Source of the DNA: a bacterium
GTDB taxonomy: Bacteria > UBP6 > UBA1177
Assembly: GCA_016290135.1 (NCBI GenBank)
Contig: JAEESW010000004.1
Location: forward strand, 40,066-104,065
DNA: 64,000 bases
Reading direction: 5' to 3'
In this document: one piece after another, positions 37,914 to 62,277 of the stretch
Position numbering within the stretch: position 1 is the stretch's first letter
Layout: every line of letters starts with the position of its first letter
Made by a program: the position numbers and the translations under genes
Notes under the pieces: model-generated
What the model was told of the DNA's origin: nothing
The model's input: the letters and a program-made list of their open reading frames with translations, nothing else
Databases searched by the model: none

Positions 37914-38030
37914 AAAATATTGAAAAATTGCCATTTTTGCCTTGAAAATATATTGAAAAGTTGGTTTTTTTGATCCGAAAAGATATTGAAAAGTAGTCTT
38001 TTTTAGTCCGAAAATATATTGAAAAGTCGG
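37914..38030 (+). repeat. Orphan 4 x 33-bp periodic direct-repeat array
   Basis: ATATTGAAAA core starts at 37917, 37950, 37983 and 38016 (exact 33-bp period), between convergent genes. Confidence 0.85.
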
Positions 38031-43380: not shown

Positions 43381-44374
43381 ACAATAAATTCCTCAAACAA
43401 TGATACATATAACGCAAATTGGCTCTCGGAGAGTCAAAGAACCCCATTTTTCTAAAAGTTGTAAAATATAACTTCAAGGATGTAACGCTGTTTTTTATAC
43501 CAAAATCGGTTGCTTTTCTTTGAAATAATTTGATAAGTTCCTGAAATTTTTCACCGTGACCGTATTTTTTCCCGGCAATAGATATTTTTTCGAAGATATT
43601 TACAGCATTCACAACTTCTTCAATGTTTTGTGGAATAAGTTGTTCCGCAAAGAAATCATTATAAATTCGAAGTTCCTCATCACTCAAGTGTAATCCGATG
43701 TTTTCGAGGTTTCTTAAGCGTATAAGATTTGAATCCTGATTTTGTGTTGTTTTTTTTGCCTTTCCGACTTGATTGCTGTGGATCCTATAATGCAGCAAAA
43801 CTTTTGGGATATTGGCAAATTTTAACTCATTTATTTTTCTGCACCATAGATCATAATCCTCTGCTCTTGGAAAATCTGACGAATATTGAAGATTTAAATT
43901 CTTTTTGAATATCAGTGTCGGATGGAGCATGGGACAAGAAAAAAATAATTCGTCTTTAATATCATCATATTTTTCAGGCACTTTTATGATGCGTTGATTG
44001 TCCCCGAATGTTTCTATCCAACTTCCGCAAATATCAATTTCAGGATTTTGTTCCATAAAGTCGAATTGTGTTTGAAGTCTGTGTGGTAAAGAAATATCGT
44101 CGGCATCCATTCGAGCAATGTGTTTGCCTTTAGCTTCTGCAATTCCGATATTCAATGAATTGGCAACACCTTGATTTTGTTCGTTGTTTATCAGTTTGAT
44201 TCGTGGATCTTGGAATGATCCTATGATTTCTTTTGTAGAGTCGGTTGAAGCGTCGTTGATTATTATGAATTCAAAATCGGTAAAAGTCTGAGAAAGAATG
44301 CTGTTTATGGCTTCTGTAATATATTTTTCCGCATTGTATGCCGGCATAACGACTGAAATCTGCGGATTTTTCAT
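43364..44374 (-). CDS. Glycosyltransferase family 2
   Basis: ISVVMPAYN, RMDADD, HPT, AEDYDLW; start ATG overlaps the stop of the upstream GT11. Confidence 0.92.
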   Translation of the reverse strand: MKNPQISVVMPAYNAEKYITEAINSILSQTFTDFEFIIINDASTDSTKEIIGSFQDPRIKLINNEQNQGVANSLNIGIAEAKGKHIARMDADDISLPHRLQTQFDFMEQNPEIDICGSWIETFGDNQRIIKVPEKYDDIKDELFFSCPMLHPTLIFKKNLNLQYSSDFPRAEDYDLWCRKINELKFANIPKVLLHYRIHSNQVGKAKKTTQNQDSNLIRLRNLENIGLHLSDEELRIYNDFFAEQLIPQNIEEVVNAVNIFEKISIAGKKYGHGEKFQELIKLFQRKATDFGIKNSVTSLKLYFTTFRKMGFFDSPRANLRYMYHCLRNLLYVKNG

Positions 44375-45240
44375 ATTCTCACCCAATTTTCGGGAACAAT
44401 CTTGCACTTTTTGTCTGCTTCAACATTATTGAACCATTTTGGCGGAGCAATAACGATTTTTTCTGGATTTTGGCTCAGCCATGCTCCCCACCATGAAAAA
44501 GAGCTGTTTGCAATTATAAAATGTTTGCACAAATGCATAAGATTCAGTTCGTCAATATCTGATCTGGTAGAATTGGAAACAACAGTGGCATTTGATAGAA
44601 ATCCAAAATTGTTTTTTACAAACTCGGGATCATCGGTGAAAAGAAAAAATTTTGCATTGGGAAATTTGGAAACAATGTATTCTGCTGCTTTTTGGTAATA
44701 CTCAAAAGAACAGGTTCCGTGAAATTGGTTGATTGCAGGGTTGTTGATATAGTCTCCGCGGCGAATATGCACGGCAACGCTTTCGCAAGTTGCAATTTGA
44801 TCATGCAAGTCGGCATCTTCCGGATTTTTAAGTTCAGGAAATGAAAAATCCTTTAAAATAGTTTCTCTTATTCCTTCAAAATATTGAGGATTTTGCCAGT
44901 AGCCCTCAAAATAATAGTCGTTTTTATCCTTTATTTGATCCAATACAAAAGTTTCTTCATTAACTTTTATATACTTAGGCTCAAGGCTTATGGCTTGTTT
45001 CAGAAATTTGATCAACCGACCGATTTTGCCTTTAAAAATCGGTTTTTTATATTTGATATATTGAAGAGAAAGTTCAAATTCATTCAATTTAAGTTCTCTT
45101 GGCGTAGTTCCGGCGAAATTCTGATAAAACCAGGATCTGTCATAAAAAACCTTGTAGTTTAAGCATGTTTCCAATGCTTTGCCGAATGCATGCTGAAACA
45201 TTTGATTGCCTAATCCTCCCTTGAGTTTAACGACAATCAT
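44371..45240 (-). CDS. Alpha-1,2-fucosyltransferase (GT11)
   Basis: GGLGNQMFQ, GYWQ, HIRRGDY, FTDD, ANSSFSWWGAWL. Confidence 0.92.
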   Translation of the reverse strand: MIVVKLKGGLGNQMFQHAFGKALETCLNYKVFYDRSWFYQNFAGTTPRELKLNEFELSLQYIKYKKPIFKGKIGRLIKFLKQAISLEPKYIKVNEETFVLDQIKDKNDYYFEGYWQNPQYFEGIRETILKDFSFPELKNPEDADLHDQIATCESVAVHIRRGDYINNPAINQFHGTCSFEYYQKAAEYIVSKFPNAKFFLFTDDPEFVKNNFGFLSNATVVSNSTRSDIDELNLMHLCKHFIIANSSFSWWGAWLSQNPEKIVIAPPKWFNNVEADKKCKIVPENWVRI

Positions 45241-45246
45241 GTTGTT

Positions 45247-46251
45247 TTATCTCCAGATATTCTTCAAACAATGATAAAGATACCGCAAGTTTGCTCTCGG
45301 AGTTTCAAAAATTTTCCATTTTCTGAAGGTGGTAAAATAGAGCTTCAATGATGTGACCTTGTTTTGAATTCCTTTTTCTGCAATATTTTTAATAAAGTTT
45401 TTTATAATTTCTTGAAATTTTTTTCCATAACCAGAATTGTTCCCGGCAATAGATATTTTTTCAAAAATTTTTGTTAAGCAGATTATCTCATTAATGTTTT
45501 GAGGAATAAATTGTTCGGCAAAAAAATCACAGTAAATTCTTGATTCGTAATCTGTTAGAGTGAGTCCAAGGCCTTTAAGATTTTGAAGCCGACTTTTGTT
45601 TGCATCAATAGTCTGTTCTTTTTTCTTTGCGGTGCTGGTTTGATTATTATGAGTTCTACAAAGAAGCAGTATTGCTGGAATGTTTGCAAATTTTAATTTA
45701 TTTATGGTTCTGCACCACAATTCGTAATCTTCAGCATCATTAAAATCAACAGGGTATTCAATGTTTAAATTTGTTCGATATATAGCGGTGCCATTTGTTA
45801 TAGCGCAACCAAAAAATGTTTGATCTCGAATGTCGTCGTGGGTTGTCGGTAATTTTGTGATATTATTGCTTATTCCAAAAATTTTTGACCAACTTCCGCA
45901 AATATCAATTCCAGGATTTTTTTCCATAAAGTCGAATTGAGTTTGAAGTCTTTCCAGTAAAGAAATGTCATCAGAATCCATTACGGCTATATATTTTCCT
46001 TTTGCTAACCTGTTCCCGCAGTTTCTGGCAAAAGGACATCCTTTTTTGCCGGTGTTTTTAACTGCAACAATTCTTGAATCTTTGTTGGCATATTCTTGAA
46101 TTATTGACCATGAAGAATCTGTTGATTGATCATCAACAATAATAAATTCAAAATCAGTGAAAGTCTGATCCAAGATACTTTCTATTGATTCTTTTAAATA
46201 TTGTTCACGGTTATAAACGGGCATTACGACTGAAATTTTTGGTTCAGACAT
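45247..46251 (-). CDS. Glycosyltransferase family 2
   Basis: ISVVMPVYN, VMDSDD, AEDYELW. Confidence 0.92.
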   Translation of the reverse strand: MSEPKISVVMPVYNREQYLKESIESILDQTFTDFEFIIVDDQSTDSSWSIIQEYANKDSRIVAVKNTGKKGCPFARNCGNRLAKGKYIAVMDSDDISLLERLQTQFDFMEKNPGIDICGSWSKIFGISNNITKLPTTHDDIRDQTFFGCAITNGTAIYRTNLNIEYPVDFNDAEDYELWCRTINKLKFANIPAILLLCRTHNNQTSTAKKKEQTIDANKSRLQNLKGLGLTLTDYESRIYCDFFAEQFIPQNINEIICLTKIFEKISIAGNNSGYGKKFQEIIKNFIKNIAEKGIQNKVTSLKLYFTTFRKWKIFETPRANLRYLYHCLKNIWR

Positions 46252-47251
46252 GCAGCAGATTCCTTAAACAATGATAAATATATCTCAAATTGGCTCTTGG
46301 AGTTTCAAATATTTTCCATTTTCTAAAAGCAGTAAAATATAATTTTAGGGATGTCACTTTGTTTTGGATAGCGGATTCAGCAATATTTCTTATAAAATTT
46401 TTAAGTAGATGCTGAAAATGTTGTTTGTAACCAAGTTTTTCTCCAACGACAGATATATTTTCTAACATTTTTATAGAAATGAAGAGTTCAAATTTATTTT
46501 TCGGAGAAAATTTCCAATCGATAATATCTAAATATATTTGTTTTTCTTGTTCTGTTAGGTTTATTCCAATAGTTGATAGGTTATTTATTCTCACAAGGTT
46601 TGCATTGTTATCCTGTTCTGCTTTTTTTGCTGAACCAATTTGTTCATTATGGACTCGATAAAGTAATAACACTTCAGGAATATTGGCGAATTTCAACTTG
46701 TCAATCATTCTTGACCACAAATCATAATCCTGTGCAGAAGAACGATTCTCTGAATAAAGAATTAGATTCTTATTTCTAAAAATAACAGAAGGATGAATCA
46801 TAGAGCAATAGAAAAAATTAAAATCTCTAATTTCTTCATGATTTTGAAGCGTTTGCATGATTTCATCTTTGTCTCCGAACATTTTTGCCCAGCTCCCACA
46901 AATTCCAATTTCTGGATTTTGTTCCATAAAGTCAAACTGTGTTTGAAGTCTGTGTGGCAAGGAGATATCATCAGAATCCATGACGGCAATGTATTTACTT
47001 TTTGCCAGTCTATTTCCGCAATTTCTGGCAGAATAGCAGCCCTTTTTTTCTGTATTTTTAACTGCAATAATTCTTGAATCATTGTTGGCATATTCTTGAA
47101 TTATTGACCATGAAGAATCTGTTGATTGATCATCAACGATGATAAATTCAAAATCAGTGAAAGTCTGATTCAAGATACTTTCTACTGATTCTTTTAAATA
47201 TTGTTCACGGTTGTAAACCGGCATAACAACTGAAATTCGTGGTTCAGTCAT
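46244..47251 (-). CDS. Glycosyltransferase family 2
   Basis: MTEPRISVVMPVYN (start at 47251), VMDSDD, HPS, QDYDLW. Confidence 0.92.
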   Translation of the reverse strand: MTEPRISVVMPVYNREQYLKESVESILNQTFTDFEFIIVDDQSTDSSWSIIQEYANNDSRIIAVKNTEKKGCYSARNCGNRLAKSKYIAVMDSDDISLPHRLQTQFDFMEQNPEIGICGSWAKMFGDKDEIMQTLQNHEEIRDFNFFYCSMIHPSVIFRNKNLILYSENRSSAQDYDLWSRMIDKLKFANIPEVLLLYRVHNEQIGSAKKAEQDNNANLVRINNLSTIGINLTEQEKQIYLDIIDWKFSPKNKFELFISIKMLENISVVGEKLGYKQHFQHLLKNFIRNIAESAIQNKVTSLKLYFTAFRKWKIFETPRANLRYIYHCLRNLLHV

Positions 47252-48123
47252 AATCTCACCCAATTTTCGGGAACAATTCTGCATCTTTCGTTTGCTTCCG
47301 GATTTTTGTACCATTGTTTGGGCGCAATAACGATTTTTTCTGGATTTTGGCTCAGCCATGCTCCCCACCATGAAAAAGAGCTGTTTGCAATTATAAAATG
47401 CTTGCACAAATGCATAAGATTCAGTTCGTCAATATCTGATCTGGTAGAATTGGAAACAACTGTGGCGTTTGAGATAAATCCGAAATTGTTTTTTACAAAC
47501 TCGGGATCATCTGTGAAAAGAAAAAATTTTGCATTGGGAAGTTTGGAGACAATAAGTTCAGCTGCTTTTTTATAATATTCAAAGGAGCAGATTCCGTGAT
47601 GCTGGTTGGTTGTCGGATTATTGATATAATCTCCTCGGCGAATATGCACGGCTACACTTTTTGAAGTGGAAATTTGATCATGCAAGTCGGCATCTTCCGG
47701 ATTTTTAAGTTCAGGAAATGAAAAATCTTTTAGGATGTTTTCTTTTATTCTTTCAAAATATTGAGGATTTTGCCAATATCCTTCAAGGTAAAGATTGCTT
47801 TTTGTTTTTAGCTGTTCAAGGGAAAAAGATTTTTCATATATTTTGTTGCATACGATTTTCCTTTTAAGTCTTTGCTTGAGAATTGTCAGCCAAGAATGTT
47901 GTTTGTTCCTGAAAAATAAGCCGGTTGGGTCAATATAATTCAAAGACAAACTAAAAGTTGCCAATTCAAAATTTCGTGGAGTCATATTAGCCTTGGCAAA
48001 ATCCAGATAAAACCATGATTTGTCATAAAGAACTTTCTGCTTTAAGTTTGTTTCCAAGACTTTACCAAAAGCATATTGGAACATTTGATTGCCTAATCCG
48101 CCCATAAGTTTGACAATGATCAT
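47248..48123 (-). CDS. Alpha-1,2-fucosyltransferase (GT11), paralog
   Basis: GGLGNQMFQY, GYWQ, HIRRGDY, NSSFSWWGAWL. Confidence 0.92.
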   Translation of the reverse strand: MIIVKLMGGLGNQMFQYAFGKVLETNLKQKVLYDKSWFYLDFAKANMTPRNFELATFSLSLNYIDPTGLFFRNKQHSWLTILKQRLKRKIVCNKIYEKSFSLEQLKTKSNLYLEGYWQNPQYFERIKENILKDFSFPELKNPEDADLHDQISTSKSVAVHIRRGDYINNPTTNQHHGICSFEYYKKAAELIVSKLPNAKFFLFTDDPEFVKNNFGFISNATVVSNSTRSDIDELNLMHLCKHFIIANSSFSWWGAWLSQNPEKIVIAPKQWYKNPEANERCRIVPENWVRL

Positions 48124-48129
48124 ACGTTT

Positions 48130-48825
48130 TTACTTCCAGAGCACGTCGCCTTTAAAAAATATTGTTGTCTTATGAAATGAAAAAAATCTGGGAGGAATTC
48201 CTTCTATAGAAAAATGATTGAAACCAGTTTCTTTAAGAAAATCAAAAGCTTCTTTATATCGTTCTCTCCCAGAGTCATCTAAAATAATTATGCCGCCTGT
48301 ATTTAACGAAAAAGCAGATTCTTTTACACAATTTACTCTGTCTCTACCATCGACAAAAATTATATCAAAAGTCTCGTTCAGTTTTTTCAATGTTTTACAA
48401 TAATCTCCGCCATATTCTAATTCTTGGAAAATCATCTCAACATTTTTTGGCATCAAAGATAAAGCTCGATCATACCATTTTTTATCATGTTCAATAGAAA
48501 CAACTCTTTTTACCCGTTCTGCAAAAAACAATGTCGAATTTCCGGAGCCAAATTCAAAAATTGTCATGTTTTTATCTAAATAATGCTCTAAAAAATGAAT
48601 CATGGGATAAGATAACCATGGTAAAGGATTGTCATTTTTGTCAACGGGCATTTTTTTATTAAAAGAATTTGTCCACCCTATTTCATATAAAAAACCATTT
48701 TCTAAAGATTGATTCGCATAGCGTTGAATGTCAGACGACAAAGAATAGTGTATTTCTTTTTCAAGAGAAAATAATTTGATAAATTTTATTAAAAAGTTTT
48801 TTGTCCATCGTCTTATTTTTTTCAT
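48130..48825 (-). CDS. SAM-dependent methyltransferase (FkbM-like) in glycan locus
   Basis: PLPWL.YP, FEFGSGNST, SIEHD..W, FDIIFVDGRDR, IILDDS.R. Confidence 0.82.
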   Translation of the reverse strand: MKKIRRWTKNFLIKFIKLFSLEKEIHYSLSSDIQRYANQSLENGFLYEIGWTNSFNKKMPVDKNDNPLPWLSYPMIHFLEHYLDKNMTIFEFGSGNSTLFFAERVKRVVSIEHDKKWYDRALSLMPKNVEMIFQELEYGGDYCKTLKKLNETFDIIFVDGRDRVNCVKESAFSLNTGGIIILDDSGRERYKEAFDFLKETGFNHFSIEGIPPRFFSFHKTTIFFKGDVLWK

Positions 48826-50108: not shown

Positions 50109-50201
50109 GAGCCTCAACACACAAAACAAAAACAGTGTAAAATCCCACAAAGTGCGGTAAATGTCAATAGAAAAGGGGAAAGAGGTGGTTTTTGTGCCGC
50201 C

Positions 50202-50403
50202 AACCCCTCAGCCGCTGCTTCGACGAGCTCAGCAACCGGCAGCTCCCCTAATTTAGGGGCGCCTTTCTAACATTAGCAAGCCTCCACTGAGTCAGGGGAG
50301 GTGTCACGCAGTGACGGTGGGGTCTGTAAAGCCGCCAACCCCTCAGCCGCTTTGCGGCAGCTCCCCTGATTTCAGGGGCGCCTTGACGGGGCGCCTATCT
50401 AAC
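50202..50403. repeat. REP-like cluster (A, inverted B, A) downstream of DUF559 gene
   Basis: A = ACCCCTCAGYC..GGCAGCTCCCCT..AGGGGCGCCT at 50202 and 50337; inverted copy AAGCCTCCACTGAGTCAGGGGAGGTGTCACGCAGTGACGGTGGGGT at 50278. Confidence 0.9.
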
Positions 50404-50770
50404 GTTGCGTAGGATCTGCACATATTCTTTGTTGGATAATGTCATCAATTTTTGTGCAGACAGATGAAAAATCGGAGTCTATTTCTTTATTTGGAAAACG
50501 CAGGACCATAAAGCCTAATGCATTTAAAATATTGGTTCTTTCGGCATCGTGAGCTAATCCGTCTTCTGTGTAGTGCTGGCTTCCGTCAAGTTCTATGATT
50601 AATTTTGCTTTTGCACAGCAAAAATCAACAACAAATTTGTTTATGATTTTCTGCCTACATATTTTTATAGGATAATGCCGCAAAAAATCGAACCATAAAT
50701 GCTTTTCCTGAGGAGTCATTTCTTTGCGCAACATTCGCGCTGCTTCTATCAGAAGCCGATTCTTTCTCAT
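50399..50770 (-). CDS. DUF559 (Vsr-like) endonuclease domain protein
   Basis: AR.LRK.MT..E..LW, RQ..I..FVVDF.C....LIIELDGSQH, D..R...L...GF.VLRF.N. Confidence 0.9.
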   Translation of the reverse strand: MRKNRLLIEAARMLRKEMTPQEKHLWFDFLRHYPIKICRQKIINKFVVDFCCAKAKLIIELDGSQHYTEDGLAHDAERTNILNALGFMVLRFPNKEIDSDFSSVCTKIDDIIQQRICADPTQR

Positions 50771-50850
50771 AAATTCAATAAAATGAAAAACATAGTAAAC
50801 ATATACAAAATAGAAATTCCAAGTATTTTGTCAAATTTTTAAAAAGCTGC

Positions 50851-50959
50851 AACCCCTCAGTCAACCTTTGGTTGGCAGCTCCCCTAATTTAGGGGCGCCT
50901 ATCTAACATTAGCAAGCCTCCACTGAGTCGGGGGAGGTGTCACGCAGTGACGGAGAGGT
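50851..50959. repeat. REP-like inverted doublet upstream of DUF559 gene
   Basis: A (50851-50900), TCTAACATTAGC spacer, B (50914-50959); near-identical to 50238-50323. Confidence 0.9.
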
Positions 50960-51043
50960 CAGGATCCTGATTCGGTTTTTCTAGCGATTTCCGGGGATTT
51001 CATATTTTTTGCTTTTTCAACCTGCTTTTTGTGCAAAATTGTC

Positions 51044-51162
51044 AAAAAATCTTGATTTGGTGTGAAAGTAACCCATAAAAAATCTTGATTTGGTGTGAAA
51101 GTAACCCATAAAAAATCTTGATTTGGTGTAAAAAATGCCGTATAAAAATCTTGATTTGGTGT
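51044..51162 (+). repeat. 4 x 33-bp direct-repeat array overlapping promoter of ATPase 1
   Basis: 20-bp core (A/T)AAAAATCTTGATTTGGTGT at 51044, 51077, 51110 and 51143 with 13-bp spacers; contains TTGATT-17-TATAAA (51118-51146). Confidence 0.92.
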
Positions 51163-51185: not shown

Positions 51186-52538
51186 GTGAGAAGAAAAATC
51201 CTTGAAAAAATAGCGGAATGGAAGAGGACTGGCAACGGAAAAACAGCCTTACTCATTGATGGTGCCCGGCGTGTCGGAAAAAGTTATGTCGCGGAAGAAT
51301 TTGCCAAGAATAATTATAAATCATACCTTTTGATTGATTTCAACGAAGCCGGGCAGGAAATTAAAGATCTTTTCGAGCAGAATCTCAGGGATTTGGATCA
51401 TTTGTTCACTTTTTTGTCTGCAGTATACAGAGTAAAGCTTTACGAAAGAGAATCTCTGATTATTTTTGATGAAGTCCAGTTATGTCCCAGAGCTCGCGCC
51501 GCAATAAAATTTTTAGTGGCAGACGGCAGATACGACTACATCGAAACAGGTTCGCTCGTCTCTATCCGCAAAAATGTGAAGGATATAGTAATTCCTTCCG
51601 AAGAGCGTCATTTGAAAATGTATCCCATGGATTTCGAGGAGTTTTTGTGGGCTTTAGGCGAAGATGCTTTGTGGCAGGTTATCAAAACCTGTTTTGAAAA
51701 AAAGCAACCTCTTGCTCAGGCACTTCACCGAAAGGCGATGACGCTTTTTCGTGAATATCTTATCATCGGCGGAATGCCTCAGGCGGTAAGCGAATACCTG
51801 TCATCAAAAGATTTTCAAACCGTTGACGCTGTAAAAAGGGATATTCTTTCGTTGTACCGCGACGATATTATCAAACATGCTTCAGGTTATGAGCGTAAAG
51901 TCACCGGAATTTTTGATGAAATACCTTCACAACTTTCAAAACATGAAAAGAAGTTTTCTCTCTCCGCATTGGGCAAAGGGATAAGGTCAAGAGATTATGA
52001 GAGCGCATTTCTTTGGCTTGAAGATTCAATGATTGTCAATATTTGCTACAATTCAACAGAACCGAATATCGGCCTTAAACTCAACCGTGACAACTCGTCA
52101 ATGAAGATTTACATGGGTGATACCGGCCTTTTGATAAGCCATGCATTTGATGAAAACGGAATAGTAACCAATGAAATTTACAAAAAACTTCTGTTTGGAA
52201 AACTTGAAGTCAACGAGGGAATGCTTTTTGAGAATATTGTGGCGCAGATGCTCACTGCCAACGGTCACAAACTTTATTTTTATTCAAACGCGGCAAGAAA
52301 CGACAGAACTTCCAGAATGGAAATTGATTTCCTTATCGCGAAATCAAAAATTACCGACCGGCACAATATTTCTCCTCTGGAAGTTAAGTCAGGCAAGAAC
52401 TACACTCTTTCTTCAATAAACAAATTTTGCAATAAATTCAGAGAACAACTTAACACCCCGGTTGTGCTTCACACCGAAAACCTGTTTAAGAAAGACGAGG
52501 TTGTCTGCCTTCCCGTTTACATGACGATGTTTTTGTAA
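51186..52538 (+). CDS. AAA_14 ATPase + DUF4143 (PD-(D/E)XK-like C-terminus) protein 1
   Basis: GARRVGKS, FDEVQ, TGS, PMDFEEFL, GGMP, K.YM.DTGLL, G.LFEN, EIDF...PLEVKS. Confidence 0.9.
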   Translation: MRRKILEKIAEWKRTGNGKTALLIDGARRVGKSYVAEEFAKNNYKSYLLIDFNEAGQEIKDLFEQNLRDLDHLFTFLSAVYRVKLYERESLIIFDEVQLCPRARAAIKFLVADGRYDYIETGSLVSIRKNVKDIVIPSEERHLKMYPMDFEEFLWALGEDALWQVIKTCFEKKQPLAQALHRKAMTLFREYLIIGGMPQAVSEYLSSKDFQTVDAVKRDILSLYRDDIIKHASGYERKVTGIFDEIPSQLSKHEKKFSLSALGKGIRSRDYESAFLWLEDSMIVNICYNSTEPNIGLKLNRDNSSMKIYMGDTGLLISHAFDENGIVTNEIYKKLLFGKLEVNEGMLFENIVAQMLTANGHKLYFYSNAARNDRTSRMEIDFLIAKSKITDRHNISPLEVKSGKNYTLSSINKFCNKFREQLNTPVVLHTENLFKKDEVVCLPVYMTMFL

Positions 52539-59663: not shown

Positions 59664-60152
59664 ATGATTTCACGCGCGTTTACCTTAATAGAATTGATGA
59701 TCGTTATCGCAGTAATTGGAATTTTGACCGCAATTGCAATACCTATGTATCAGAGCTATTCGGCACGTGCAAAGGCATCGGAAGTGCCGATAATTCTTAA
59801 AGATATTGTTAAATTCCAATTCATCCATAGAGAATATCCTGCTAGCAATGGTCAATATGCGAATGGTCTAAAAACGATTGGAGTTAAGACAAATCTTGGC
59901 AAATTTGCAGCGAATCCAGAAGATTGTCCTTCAGCCACTGCCACCGAAAGTGATGAAACAAATATTTATGGGTGTAGCAAATATTACGGTTTTTCCACAA
60001 GTAAAGCGAGCGGTGGAGTCACATGTGCTGCAAACGGGATCGGTAATTTTTCATGGGCAAAAGCTATTAGCGAAGATGAATTGTTGCACAATGATCTTGC
60101 CGGATGCATGACAGAAGATTTTTATTATAAGCACGGCTCGGGCGGCAATTAG
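59664..60152 (+). CDS. Type IVa pilin 1
   Basis: MISRA|[22 protein letters not shown] prepilin motif; start at 59664 lies downstream of the sigma54 site. Confidence 0.9.
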
Positions 60153-60245: not shown

Positions 60246-60761
60246 ATGAAAAAAGGTTTTACACTTATCGAGCTCATGATCGTTATCGCGATTATCGGTA
60301 TTCTTGCAGCAGTTGCTATTCCTATGTACAGCGACTACACCAAAAAATCGAGAACCTCTGAGGTTGCTTCCAACCTTTCGGAAATTGCAAAGATGCAGCT
60401 TATCTACAAAGAGGATCCGTATGGCGGTTCTCAGAACGGTAAATTTGCACAGAATTTCCTTACACTTGGTTTCAAAACAAATGTTGGAACATTTACTGCT
60501 TCAGTAACCAACACAACAACAAAACAAACATGCCAAGAAAGTGATACTGTTGCTGCTACAGCTGGTAGCTATGCATGCGGTAAATTCTTTGCTTACAAAC
60601 TTACGGTTCCTGCAGATGGATTCGCTCTTTCGGCACTGAACACATGTGCAGATACCGAAGGTATGGCAAAAGCTATTCCGTTGCTTGTATCGGAAGTTCC
60701 GACTGATTGGGCAAAATCTTGCATTGATGCTTCACTTAATTTGAAACATTTGGCTGACTAA
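60246..60761 (+). CDS. pilA: Type IVa major pilin PilA-like
   Basis: MKKG|[23 protein letters not shown]; strong RBS; own sigma54 promoter and terminator. Confidence 0.88.
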
Positions 60762-60809: not shown

Positions 60810-60819
60810 GTATCTGGGG

Positions 60820-60972
60820 ACCTCTCAGCCTCACGGCAGCTCCCCTACCTCAGGGGAGCCTTGGCTGGCGGGGCACCTCACCTGTCGGCTCGAATTTACT
60901 CAGACAATTAGAATCAAAACGAAGTTGAGCCTCCCCTGAAGTAGGGGAGGTGGCACGCAGTGACGGAGAGGT
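60820..60972. repeat. REP-like inverted doublet (DUF559-associated family), gene-free
   Basis: A ACCTCTCAGCC..GGCAGCTCCCCT..AGGGGAGCCTT (60820-60862); B AGCCTCCCCTGAAGTAGGGGAGGTGGCACGCAGTGACGGAGAGGT (60928-60972). Confidence 0.85.
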
Positions 60973-60995
60973 CAGAGACGCACCACGGCACATCT

Positions 60996-62027
60996 CTACA
61001 TTATTCTCACACCTTCTTTTGTGCGTTCAAACACGAACGGGTTATAGTTTGCATTTCCGGGATCGGTTTTGATAATGAAATCAACGATATCGTGCAGAGT
61101 TTTTGTCGAAGGTGAGCGGTGATCGCCCGATCTGACAAAAATCGTCGACGAAAAAAGGTATGAAAATGCGGTGAGCCAGAAGTCGCAACTTTTTGATTTT
61201 ATTGTGTCTCTCGGAATGAAAATCGCGTTTTCGGCATTTCCTGCCTTAAGGTCCTGCCAAAAATCGTCCATAAGTTCGCGCATGATTTCGCTTTCACGTG
61301 CGGCGTTCTCGGCGAGGCGCCCCAGGTTTTCTTTGTATGGAACATCGGGAAGAAGCGCATCAAGTGCGGGAATGATTTTGTGGCGGTAGTAGTTGCGGCG
61401 GTATTTTGTGTCAAAATTTGAGGTGTCTGACAAAAATTGTCGCTCAGCCATGAAGCCGTATATCTCATTTTTGGCGATATTGAGCATCGGACGAATGACA
61501 AAAAAAGTGCTGTTTTCGGTGTTCGATAAAAAATCGCTGTTTGAATTTATTGGTTTTATGCCGCTTAAACCTTTGATCCCGGTGCCGCGGTCAAAGAGGC
61601 GCATGAGGAGCGTCTCGACTTGGTCGTCAAGGTGGTGTGCTGTTGACAACATGCTGAAATTGTTGCGTTTTACTAGATCGAACAAAAGCTCGTAGCGCTT
61701 CATTCTTGCGCGCTCTTCTGTATTGTTTTTTTCGTTCTGCCAGAAATTTTCCTCAAATTCGAGCGGAAAAAAGGGGATCCCGAGGTTTTGACAAATTTTG
61801 TCAACAAATTTTGCTTCATCCCCTGATTCAATGCGGAGCTTGTGATCTACGTATGCGGCAGAGAGCGTGAAACCGAGCTCTTCCCGGAGTCCGTTCAGCA
61901 GAAACAGCATTGCAAGGGAGTCCGCGCCGCCGGAACATGCGGCCAAAACAGAAAAATTTTTCCCCGAAAAACCGGTTTCTTCAAGGATCTCTCTGAAATT
62001 TGCCCGAAATTTTTCTTTTAAATCCAT
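60996..62027 (-). CDS. tilS: tRNA(Ile)-lysidine synthetase
   Basis: SGGADS, VDHKLR, EERAR..RY, TAHH.DDQ.ET, RG.G..GL.GI, IRPML, D.SN....Y.RN..R. Confidence 0.93.
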   Translation of the reverse strand: MDLKEKFRANFREILEETGFSGKNFSVLAACSGGADSLAMLFLLNGLREELGFTLSAAYVDHKLRIESGDEAKFVDKICQNLGIPFFPLEFEENFWQNEKNNTEERARMKRYELLFDLVKRNNFSMLSTAHHLDDQVETLLMRLFDRGTGIKGLSGIKPINSNSDFLSNTENSTFFVIRPMLNIAKNEIYGFMAERQFLSDTSNFDTKYRRNYYRHKIIPALDALLPDVPYKENLGRLAENAARESEIMRELMDDFWQDLKAGNAENAIFIPRDTIKSKSCDFWLTAFSYLFSSTIFVRSGDHRSPSTKTLHDIVDFIIKTDPGNANYNPFVFERTKEGVRIM

Positions 62028-62123
62028 AATTCACTCCAAAAAAACGTGAATTTTTAATATTTGCGGCAAAAAAGGCAAATATTTAGTGTTTTCGGGTTGT
62101 TTTTTCTCTTTCGGGAAATATAT

Positions 62124-62256
62124 AACCTCTCAGTCGCTGCGAGTGTTCTGACCCCTCAGTCTGCTTCGCAGCCAGCTCCCCTAATTTAGGGGCGCCTTTC
62201 TAACATTAGCAAGCCTCCACTGAGGCAGGGGAGGTGCCACAAAGTGGCGGAGGGGT
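62124..62256. repeat. REP-like inverted doublet (DUF559-associated family), gene-free
   Basis: Partial A at 62124, A at 62151-62197, TCTAACATTAGC spacer, B at 62211-62256. Confidence 0.9.
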
Positions 62257-62277
62257 GAGGTTTTTAGGAGGTTTTTC

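Follow-up and report, generated by a model that had tools for sequence, protein, structure and literature searches.

Can a family of dispersed palindromic repeats be partnered by a nuclease unrelated to RAYT, the transposase of repetitive extragenic palindromes (REPs) and REPINs? The question is raised by a locus in contig JAEESW010000004.1 of the bacterial assembly GCA_016290135.1 (genome G000). In a 64,000-nt stretch of this contig (positions 40,066 to 104,065; hereafter the window, to which coordinates refer), an initial annotation had described a lone DUF559/Vsr-like nuclease gene lying among two-hairpin palindromic units, and had proposed that it occupies the position of a RAYT. We find that the gene and its units form one mobile cassette of ~0.55 kb, which comprises a unit, the gene's own promoter, the nuclease gene and an inverted unit. 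The association between gene and units is real and specific, and it is old. We propose that DUF559 acts as cognate nuclease of the repeats, a functional analogue of RAYT/REPIN built on an unrelated nuclease fold, and we judge this interpretation about equally likely to be right or wrong.

The DUF559 gene and the repeat units around it

The gene occupies positions 50399-50770 of the reverse strand, stop codon included, and its 123-residue open reading frame (ORF) matches Pfam family DUF559 (PF04480) over residues 9-111, with 106.2 bits against a cut-off of 20.6 (E=1e-30). It is the sole PF04480 match in the whole genome (2.47-Mb assembly, 98% complete), in agreement with its description as a lone gene. 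A profile of the ORF matched the solved DUF559 protein 3hrl in the PDB (E=5e-31); a weaker match (E=6e-5) was to 3r3p, the catalytic domain of homing endonuclease I-Bth0305I. An AlphaFold (AF2) model was obtained with a predicted local distance difference test score (pLDDT) of 88.2 and a predicted template modelling score (pTM) of 0.81. Foldseek placed 3hrl first for this model and 3r3p at rank 2-3, followed by PvuRts1I, Vsr (1vsr, 1cw0) and the R2 retrotransposon nuclease; the template modelling (TM) score to 3r3p is 0.65-0.67 when normalised to the query and 0.80-0.82 when normalised to the target. The protein is thus modelled with a restriction-endonuclease-like fold, of the Vsr-like PD-(D/E)XK type. 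Residues D49, E60, D62 and H66 are invariant in 12 homologues of 36-80% identity and are likely the acidic and histidine residues of the active site, judging by the family. Because the ratio of nonsynonymous to synonymous substitution rates (dN/dS) is 0.04-0.10 between the window gene and its copies in the genus, we conclude that the gene is kept by purifying selection. A promoter-like site (TTGACA, 16 nt, TATTTT) lies at 50807-50834 of the reverse strand, between the upstream unit and the start codon; the call is a consensus match only (10 of 12 positions), and a TTGACA-like box is found at the equivalent position in the cassettes of sister species. The neighbours of the gene encode a Wzt-type ABC ATPase and an AAA_14/DUF4143 protein (an AAA ATPase).

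Using a covariance model, we located 19 units at ~12 sites genome-wide, many of them arranged as inverted doublets; the assembly comprises 66 contigs, so unit counts are lower bounds. Five of the 19 lie within 200 bp of the DUF559 gene, on both sides of it, against a chance expectation of ~0.007 for the 300 bp around a single gene (Poisson P ~2e-13). Downstream of the gene, the outermost is a type A unit with a long hairpin 1 (50200-50265, forward strand; 54 bits, also detected by nhmmer) that is common to the cassette of the sister genome G012. It forms an inverted doublet with a type B unit of families D7/D8 (50278-50326, reverse; 60 bits), and a further type A unit (50335-50384, forward; 63 bits) adjoins the gene's 3' end. 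Next to it, a partial unit tail with spacer can be read directly on the forward strand at 50387-50403 (GGGGCGCCTATCTAAC). The complement of the TAG stop codon (50399-50401) falls inside this 17-mer, which recurs upstream of the gene at 50889-50905 with a difference at the last base only, so the stop codon does lie within the repeat as first described. The upstream inverted doublet consists of a type A unit (50849-50901, forward; 54 bits) and a type B unit of family D7 (50914-50962, reverse; 60 bits).

Two inverted doublets without a gene, both foreseen by the initial annotation with nearly the same borders, lie further along the window. One spans 60817-60975 (unit A at 60817-60862, forward; unit B at 60927-60975, reverse), and the other spans 62124-62259, where a partial head (62124-62143) precedes a unit A (62148-62198, forward) and a unit B (62211-62259, reverse). 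The latter doublet is 91% identical over 87 nt to the doublet beside the DUF559 gene, and the 87-nt core, family D7, is found in three places at 91-95% identity; the sister species G014 has no repeat at the site that matches 62124-62259. About 9 nt are shared by the doublet spacer and the last codons of the gene, which fits an origin of the gene-less doublets as deletion derivatives of the cassette. A palindrome at about 39590, taken at first for a decayed copy, was missed by nhmmer and is not among the covariance-model matches listed (15 of the 19); we rejected it as a unit, since by eye it falls into another, though related, family of palindromes, similar to one seen on contig C61.

A unit is ~46-65 nt long and comprises a head (ACCCCTCAG or ACCYCTCCG), a variable hairpin 1 and a conserved hairpin 2 (GCTCCCCT, loop, AGGGGAGC), so that it reads in the order ACCCCTCAG, hairpin 1, CAGCTCCCCT, loop, AGGGGAGCC. 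Covariation backs both hairpins, with 92.7% of cells paired in 15 units and none of 500 shuffles attaining the observed score. In an alignment of 133 distinct units from other bacteria, fitted to the covariance model, 95.7% of cells are paired and 268 are altered on both sides. The head and the 5' arm of hairpin 2 form a mirror repeat (mean identity 0.79 at the mirror register in the 133 distinct units), and the two co-vary, the summed mutual information (MI) being 2.27 bits compared with at most 0.41 bits at six shifted registers. Intrastrand-triplex motifs are defined by mirror repeats adjoining a hairpin. Given this co-varying mirror symmetry between head and hairpin 2, the units can be classed, from their sequences, as mirror-repeat motifs of the triplex type, similar in architecture to BoxC/TMECO elements. 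Their first description as REP/REPIN-like was therefore apt in that they are dispersed palindromes in inverted doublets, and fell short in that they are more than REP hairpins. Rfam contains no family that covers them, and an identity with the published CGTC REP families was rejected, as AT-started stems of 8-9 bp do not fit.

A mobile cassette and its association across phyla

Units were found in all 15 genomes of the genus, at 4-36 per genome. Among eight genomes from other genera of the family, six have none and one has two weak matches, and the remaining one fell outside the searched sample. Within the genus, 11 of the 12 small DUF559 genes have units within 300 bp, compared with none of five DUF559 domains contained in large proteins. 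The layout recurs: a unit, ~75 bp with a TTGACA-type box, the gene, and a unit in inverted orientation, which adjoins the stop codon or overlaps with it. The genes occupy at least four chromosomal sites, namely upstream of wzt in G000, G012 and G014, behind an htpX-like gene in G006, at another place in G007, and beside a restriction-type gene in G002 and G009. A terminal inverted repeat of 66 bp surrounds the G012 copy, and inverted units bound the copies of G006, G007 and G014.

Filled and empty sites could be compared in two pairs of relatives. The site behind the htpX-like gene is filled in G006 and empty in G007, and the site filled in G007 is empty in G014. Because both empty counterparts are free of units, we conclude that units, promoter and gene were inserted together. 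The site upstream of wzt offers no clean empty counterpart, since the upstream gene differs in every species. At both empty sites (L065 in G007, L069 in G014) there is a sequence TAGACC(C/T), which resembles the unit head TGACCCCTCAG and may be a target motif, although there are two sites only.

These comparisons also bear on the possibility that DUF559 is a homing-type selfish nuclease, which cuts in a repeat or doublet so that repair copies the gene in, with the repeats as a landing pad and not a product. Some insertion sequence (IS) elements do insert specifically into REPs. The idea draws on the profile and fold similarity to I-Bth0305I, on the position of the gene exactly between two inverted units in several cassettes of the genus, and on the ~9 nt common to the doublet spacer and the gene's 3' end. 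The two empty sites, however, carry neither units nor a doublet that could have served as the target allele, so units and gene must have arrived together. Furthermore, efficient homing would give many gene copies, whereas one or few are found against tens to hundreds of gene-less units, and the 123-residue protein has no extra DNA-binding domain. We therefore regard the homing reading as improbable.

Over promoter and gene, the cassettes of G000 and G012 agree at 425 of 428 positions (99.3%), the G012 gene copy carrying a nonsense codon. Their flanks differ far more, with 75-85% identity in the wzt region and an unrelated sequence on the other side, and this excess of similarity within the cassette indicates a recent transfer. 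The units beside the gene differ between the two cassettes. A 132-bp doublet of G000 (50275-50406, bounded by a 19-nt direct duplication, its placement ambiguous by 19 nt) is absent from the G012 cassette, and the upstream unit arrangement also differs. A metagenome contig of another study (run X5) carries a gene 99% alike with one doublet fewer, 119 nt (50255-50373) being skipped. In short, the units adjoining the gene turn over faster than the gene itself. Among the sequencing-run contigs, none joins across the whole cassette with long sides; joints of 515-657 nt were seen with sides of 25-33 nt only, and these probably stem from other doublets.

Outside the genus, we collected the 80 closest loci from species-representative genomes with a single-protein query, a sample that comprises close relatives only. 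Four of these best 80 are from the genus, and the rest are mostly from Clostridia, with proteins 48-64% identical. Other spirochaetes of the same family have DUF559 proteins only 36-42% identical, and because the clostridial proteins are closer than these, the gene has crossed phyla. Seventy-five loci outside the genus were scored with the unit model, which was built on spirochaete units, one near-duplicate being left out. Of 168 model matches, 126 fall in the 43.5 kb that lie no more than 300 bp from the gene, and 41 in the remaining 461 kb, which gives a density near the gene 32.6-fold that of the remaining sequence. A unit is found within 300 bp in 62 of the 75 loci, compared with 16 of 170 control genes lying 1 kb or more from the DUF559 gene (P = 7e-30), and units lie on both sides in 19 of the 75 loci and one of the 170 controls (P = 4e-10). 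In 24 of 77 loci the gene is bridged by inverted repeats that score at least 20, compared with 4 of 271 control genes. The distance between stop codon and first downstream unit has a median of 13 bp. The enrichment of repeats beside DUF559 homologues that the initial annotation anticipated is thus seen within the genus and well beyond it.

We also looked at genome-wide co-occurrence. The complete genome of Faecalibacterium prausnitzii UT1 has one DUF559 gene and, with scoring limited to 150 candidates, at least 146 units, seven of them within 700 bp of the gene. Among 61 genomes of the F. prausnitzii family, units occur in six of the seven that have a small DUF559 gene and in five of the 54 that do not (Fisher P = 5e-5, for related genomes that are not independent). 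Among distant homologues from other families and phyla (31-42% identity), 22 of 23 have GC-rich homopurine/homopyrimidine hairpins within 200 bp, with hairpins on both sides in 12 of the 23 and a density 11.5-fold that of the rest of the loci.

It could be argued that a small orphan gene and common intergenic repeats have come to share a junk-rich region by chance. The 12-kb stretch of the window from 50.2 to 62.3 kb is indeed repeat-rich, holding nine of the 19 genome units, and a housekeeping-like gene at 61000-62030 is also bracketed by doublets. Set against the probability of ~2e-13 in this genome, the difference between DUF559 and control loci elsewhere, and the replication of the association in the genus, in Clostridia and in E. 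coli, a coincidence can hardly be credited.

In E. coli K-12, the only DUF559 gene is ycjD, whose stop codon lies inside a CCCTCTCCC...GAGCGAGGGGG palindrome. TMECO motif no. 9 (Table 1 of Holder et al. 2015, PMC4666352), one of 23 in strain MG1655, lies 168 bp downstream of ycjD; 23 motifs placed by chance would put ~0.003 within 300 bp of a given gene. A strict TMECO-like pattern gave 14 matches in K-12 and none in a reversed control, with P = 0.002 for proximity to ycjD. Those authors equate TMECO with BoxC and PIT elements, count 3610 in 262 proteobacterial genomes beside the 23 of MG1655, show triplex folding in vitro and report raised variability around the motifs. They describe them as sites of instability by a mechanism called unclear, and state that transposase or integrase remnants were 'never found' near them; ycjD is not named in the main text (PMC4666352). 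The gene occurs in 3378 of 5426 complete E. coli genomes. We counted other TMECO-like places in an evenly spaced sample of 60 complete records, one 0.79-Mb record being dropped, and found 16-32 (median 21) in 37 ycjD-positive chromosomes and 2-20 (median 8.5) in 22 that are ycjD-negative. In JJ1886, the sequence departs from that of K-12 ~40 nt before the TMECO, from which it follows that TMECO and ycjD lie in the same replaced segment. A 62-nt insert that starts with the stop-codon palindrome is flanked on each side by a copy of the last ~40 nt of ycjD (L158:3300-3420), much as a 19-nt duplication bounds the 132-bp doublet at the window gene's 3' end. Both look like repeat insertions into the end of a gene with unusually long duplications.

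A further possibility is that DUF559 is a host nuclease of repair or structure processing, a Vsr-like enzyme that clears hairpin, triplex or mismatch structures of the repeats and is linked to them only through shared variable regions. Caulobacter VsrA, which has a DUF559 domain, gives an SOS response without its partner methylase, and its authors propose a repair nuclease (PMC12907096). The reported instability at TMECO motifs (PMC4666352) and the purifying selection on the gene would both suit such a role. The DUF559 protein nevertheless has no match to Pfam Vsr (PF03852), there is no cytosine-5 methylase among the neighbours of its gene, which are the two ATPases described above, and an enzyme acting in trans needs neither a 13-bp proximity to a unit nor shared movement in a cassette. 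A pure repair role is in our estimate distinctly improbable.

Cognate nuclease or passenger

Other candidate enzymes for the repeats were also sought. The Y1 transposase family to which RAYTs belong (PF01797) has no match in this genome; in the genus it is matched in a single genome out of 15, and no units lie at that place. The 45 ORFs beside ten other unit sites comprise no transposase or integrase; they encode toxin-antitoxin, RhuM/ORF6N-type and ordinary proteins. The repeats thus do not flank a RAYT or an IS element, which speaks in favour of the interpretation first given.

A multi-copy family of ~290-residue proteins with an ORF6N/RhuM-type N-terminus was also seen, one G000 copy having a weak PLD-like Pfam match at its C-terminus. 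Its members lie in G000 at C22:7946-8824, C49:5958-6827, C37 and C51 (L162, L167) and C64 (L169:1537-1989), and in G003 at L155:1432-2370; two of four full copies and one truncated copy adjoin units in G000, and at least three in G003. These paralogues were rejected as a general unit enzyme, since they are absent from G072, and in the F. prausnitzii genome G061 the single member lies away from units. In G003, unit clusters bracket an ORF6N-type gene and an ordinary CBS-domain membrane gene, and no other nuclease cassette turned up there.

On our preferred reading, that of a cognate nuclease, we infer from the association that the protein may bind and cut the units and thereby drive their spread, and the dispersed gene-less doublets would be best explained as non-autonomous relatives of the cassette. 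When a unit becomes single-stranded or is extruded, its head could fold back on hairpin 2 to give a mirror-repeat structure of the triplex type. The DUF559 protein would recognise the folded unit and nick or cut at or beside it, and host repair or replication might then copy, delete or move units, preferentially near the gene.

A number of observations speak against this reading, the most general being that everything rests on association. The unit count is highest for the genus in G003 (36; 99% complete), a genome without a small DUF559 gene, and G004 (13 units) and G013 (6 units) also lack one. Across the genus, unit counts range over 13-35 where the gene is present and over 4-36 where it is absent, a weak difference (one-sided P = 0.02) among related genomes that are not independent. 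In the F. prausnitzii family, G072 has 41 units and no DUF559 gene, and G118 has a small DUF559 gene and no units under stricter filters. Since units are present in gene-less genomes, the gene is not needed for them to persist. Thirteen of the 75 outside loci have no model match within 300 bp, and units in the genus also adjoin accessory genes (RhuM/ORF6N-type paralogues, toxin-antitoxin). No target-site duplication could be defined at the two pairs of filled and empty sites, where the flanks are ~80% alike. For E. coli, PMC12817139 describes ycjD as replacing the eef operon in phylogroups A, B1 and C and, independently, in ST69 and ST182. The contrast in TMECO-like counts follows phylogroups and, being confounded by descent, is suggestive only; O157:H7 records lack ycjD yet have 14 TMECO-like places. 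Finally, we know of no route by which a nuclease of ~115 residues could join strands, and spread must therefore lean on host functions.

Several of these points would be expected if the gene were a passenger, that is, if units were moved by another trans-acting enzyme, or by recombination or replication slippage, and DUF559 were trapped cargo with a function of its own in restriction-like defence or repair. The unit-rich genomes without the gene (G003, G072), the units beside other accessory genes and the small size of the nuclease all favour such an account, as does a match in PADLOC to a methyl-directed restriction enzyme, although PADLOC gave weak matches only (E=5e-6 for this one). On the other hand, members of the same gene family occupy the same position in different phyla beside different unit variants, with a stop codon typically some 13 bp from the first unit, and cargo taken up at random would not turn out to be one and the same gene in 62 of 75 loci. 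The search described above also yielded no other enzyme, RhuM included. For these reasons we consider the passenger account unlikely, though it deserves to be kept in mind.

The cognate-nuclease reading can be widened to the whole DUF559/YcjD family, which would then be the partner nuclease of BoxC/PIT/TMECO-type and related mirror-repeat palindromes across bacteria, with each clade travelling with, and acting on, its own repeat variant. We put this forward tentatively, as possible but rather doubtful.

Relation to known systems, and further observations

The system resembles REP/REPIN-RAYT in that intergenic DNA contains scattered short palindromic units, often arranged as inverted doublets, in that one or few gene copies are flanked by units while tens to hundreds of copies are gene-less, and in that repeat populations remain in genomes without the gene. 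It differs in its enzyme, a Vsr-like PD-(D/E)XK nuclease and not an HUH Y1 transposase, and in its units, which have two hairpins and a mirror-repeat head. It is an analogue and not a member of REP/REPIN-RAYT, because PF01797 is not matched. Furthermore, the DUF559 gene moves between sites and species with its units, whereas RAYTs are described as vertically inherited. With BoxC/PIT/TMECO, the units share GC-rich homopyrimidine/homopurine blocks, a hairpin with a mirror repeat, and an intergenic, strain-variable location, often in inverted pairs. PMC4666352 reports no mobility gene in the neighbourhood of TMECO. The units do not fit the TMECO consensus CCCTCNCCC N3-6 GGGNGAGGG N3 GGGNGAGGG (PMC4666352), as they have a variable hairpin in place of its 3-nt loop.

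I-Bth0305I, encoded in a phage group I intron, has in common with DUF559 the catalytic fold and residence in a mobile selfish nuclease gene. The DUF559 gene differs in being free-standing, intergenic (in no intron or intein) and repeat-flanked, and in lacking an added DNA-binding domain. Vsr (1vsr, 1cw0) and Caulobacter VsrA belong to the same fold superfamily, and VsrA has a DUF559 domain (PMC12907096); the window protein departs from Vsr in having neither a Pfam Vsr match nor an adjoining cytosine methylase. IS200/IS605-type elements and miniature inverted-repeat transposable elements (MITEs) combine a very small enzyme gene, hairpins at each end and short derivatives without a gene, and show no clear target duplication. 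The cassette shares the first three features, and no target duplication could be defined for it either; it has no HUH or other known transposase, and its ends are true inverted repeats (66 bp in G012).

A search of full texts, titles and abstract starts, with most subscription journals outside its coverage, gave among the papers listed none that links DUF559, Vsr or ycjD with repetitive extragenic palindromes, and within the same coverage the listed papers that combine REPINs, RAYT and endonuclease all concern HUH enzymes or IS elements. What is new here is a proposed partnership of repeats and enzyme in which both the class of the enzyme and the architecture of the repeats differ. The nuclease domain DUF559 is widespread in bacteria and has no assigned function; the conserved link provides a testable one, and it also supplies a candidate for several short palindromic or triplex-type repeat families without a known enzyme partner (Di Nocera et al.; Holder et al. 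2015). As E. coli K-12 carries both ycjD and 23 mapped motifs, the link can be tested there. If the cognate-nuclease reading is correct, a single gene partnered with many hairpin repeats is an arrangement that has evolved at least twice, with different nuclease folds. If it holds family-wide, it would explain the spread of repeats between phyla and their unstable surroundings, and it would be a second REP-enzyme partnership, mechanistically unrelated to RAYT/REPIN.

Some further observations concern the nuclease fold. A true Vsr homologue (PF03852, E=5e-14) is encoded on contig C22 (L162:2746-3144, reverse strand), ~1.1 kb from a unit pair; a classical Vsr thus exists in this genome alongside the DUF559 gene. 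Foldseek also returned DUF559-like domains in mitochondrial ribosome proteins of Tetrahymena and Toxoplasma (ranks 4-7 and 11; TM ~0.6 to the model), which indicates, at the level of modelled structure, that a DUF559-like fold was recruited into organelle ribosomes.

Other repeats were seen in this genome and in the window. A second dispersed repeat of ~60 nt (CGTCATGTTGAG...GAAACATCTC...) often abuts a type B unit, giving composite modules; it was found on the G000 contigs C22, C49, C26 and C30 and also in G003 and G006. A 33-bp tandem repeat (AAAAAATCTTGATTTGGTGT...) in 3.5 copies lies at 51044-51162, just upstream of the AAA_14/DUF4143 ATPase gene (51186-52538). Its copy number varies among metagenome contigs, in which 33-46 nt are skipped, and a similar 33-bp array lies at 37914-38030. 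Two pilin-like N-terminal coding segments (59679-59749 and 60258-60328) are 73% alike, and several segments of 100-300 nt among the polysaccharide genes at 43388-48140 are 70-84% alike, which points to paralogous genes in a variable surface-structure locus.

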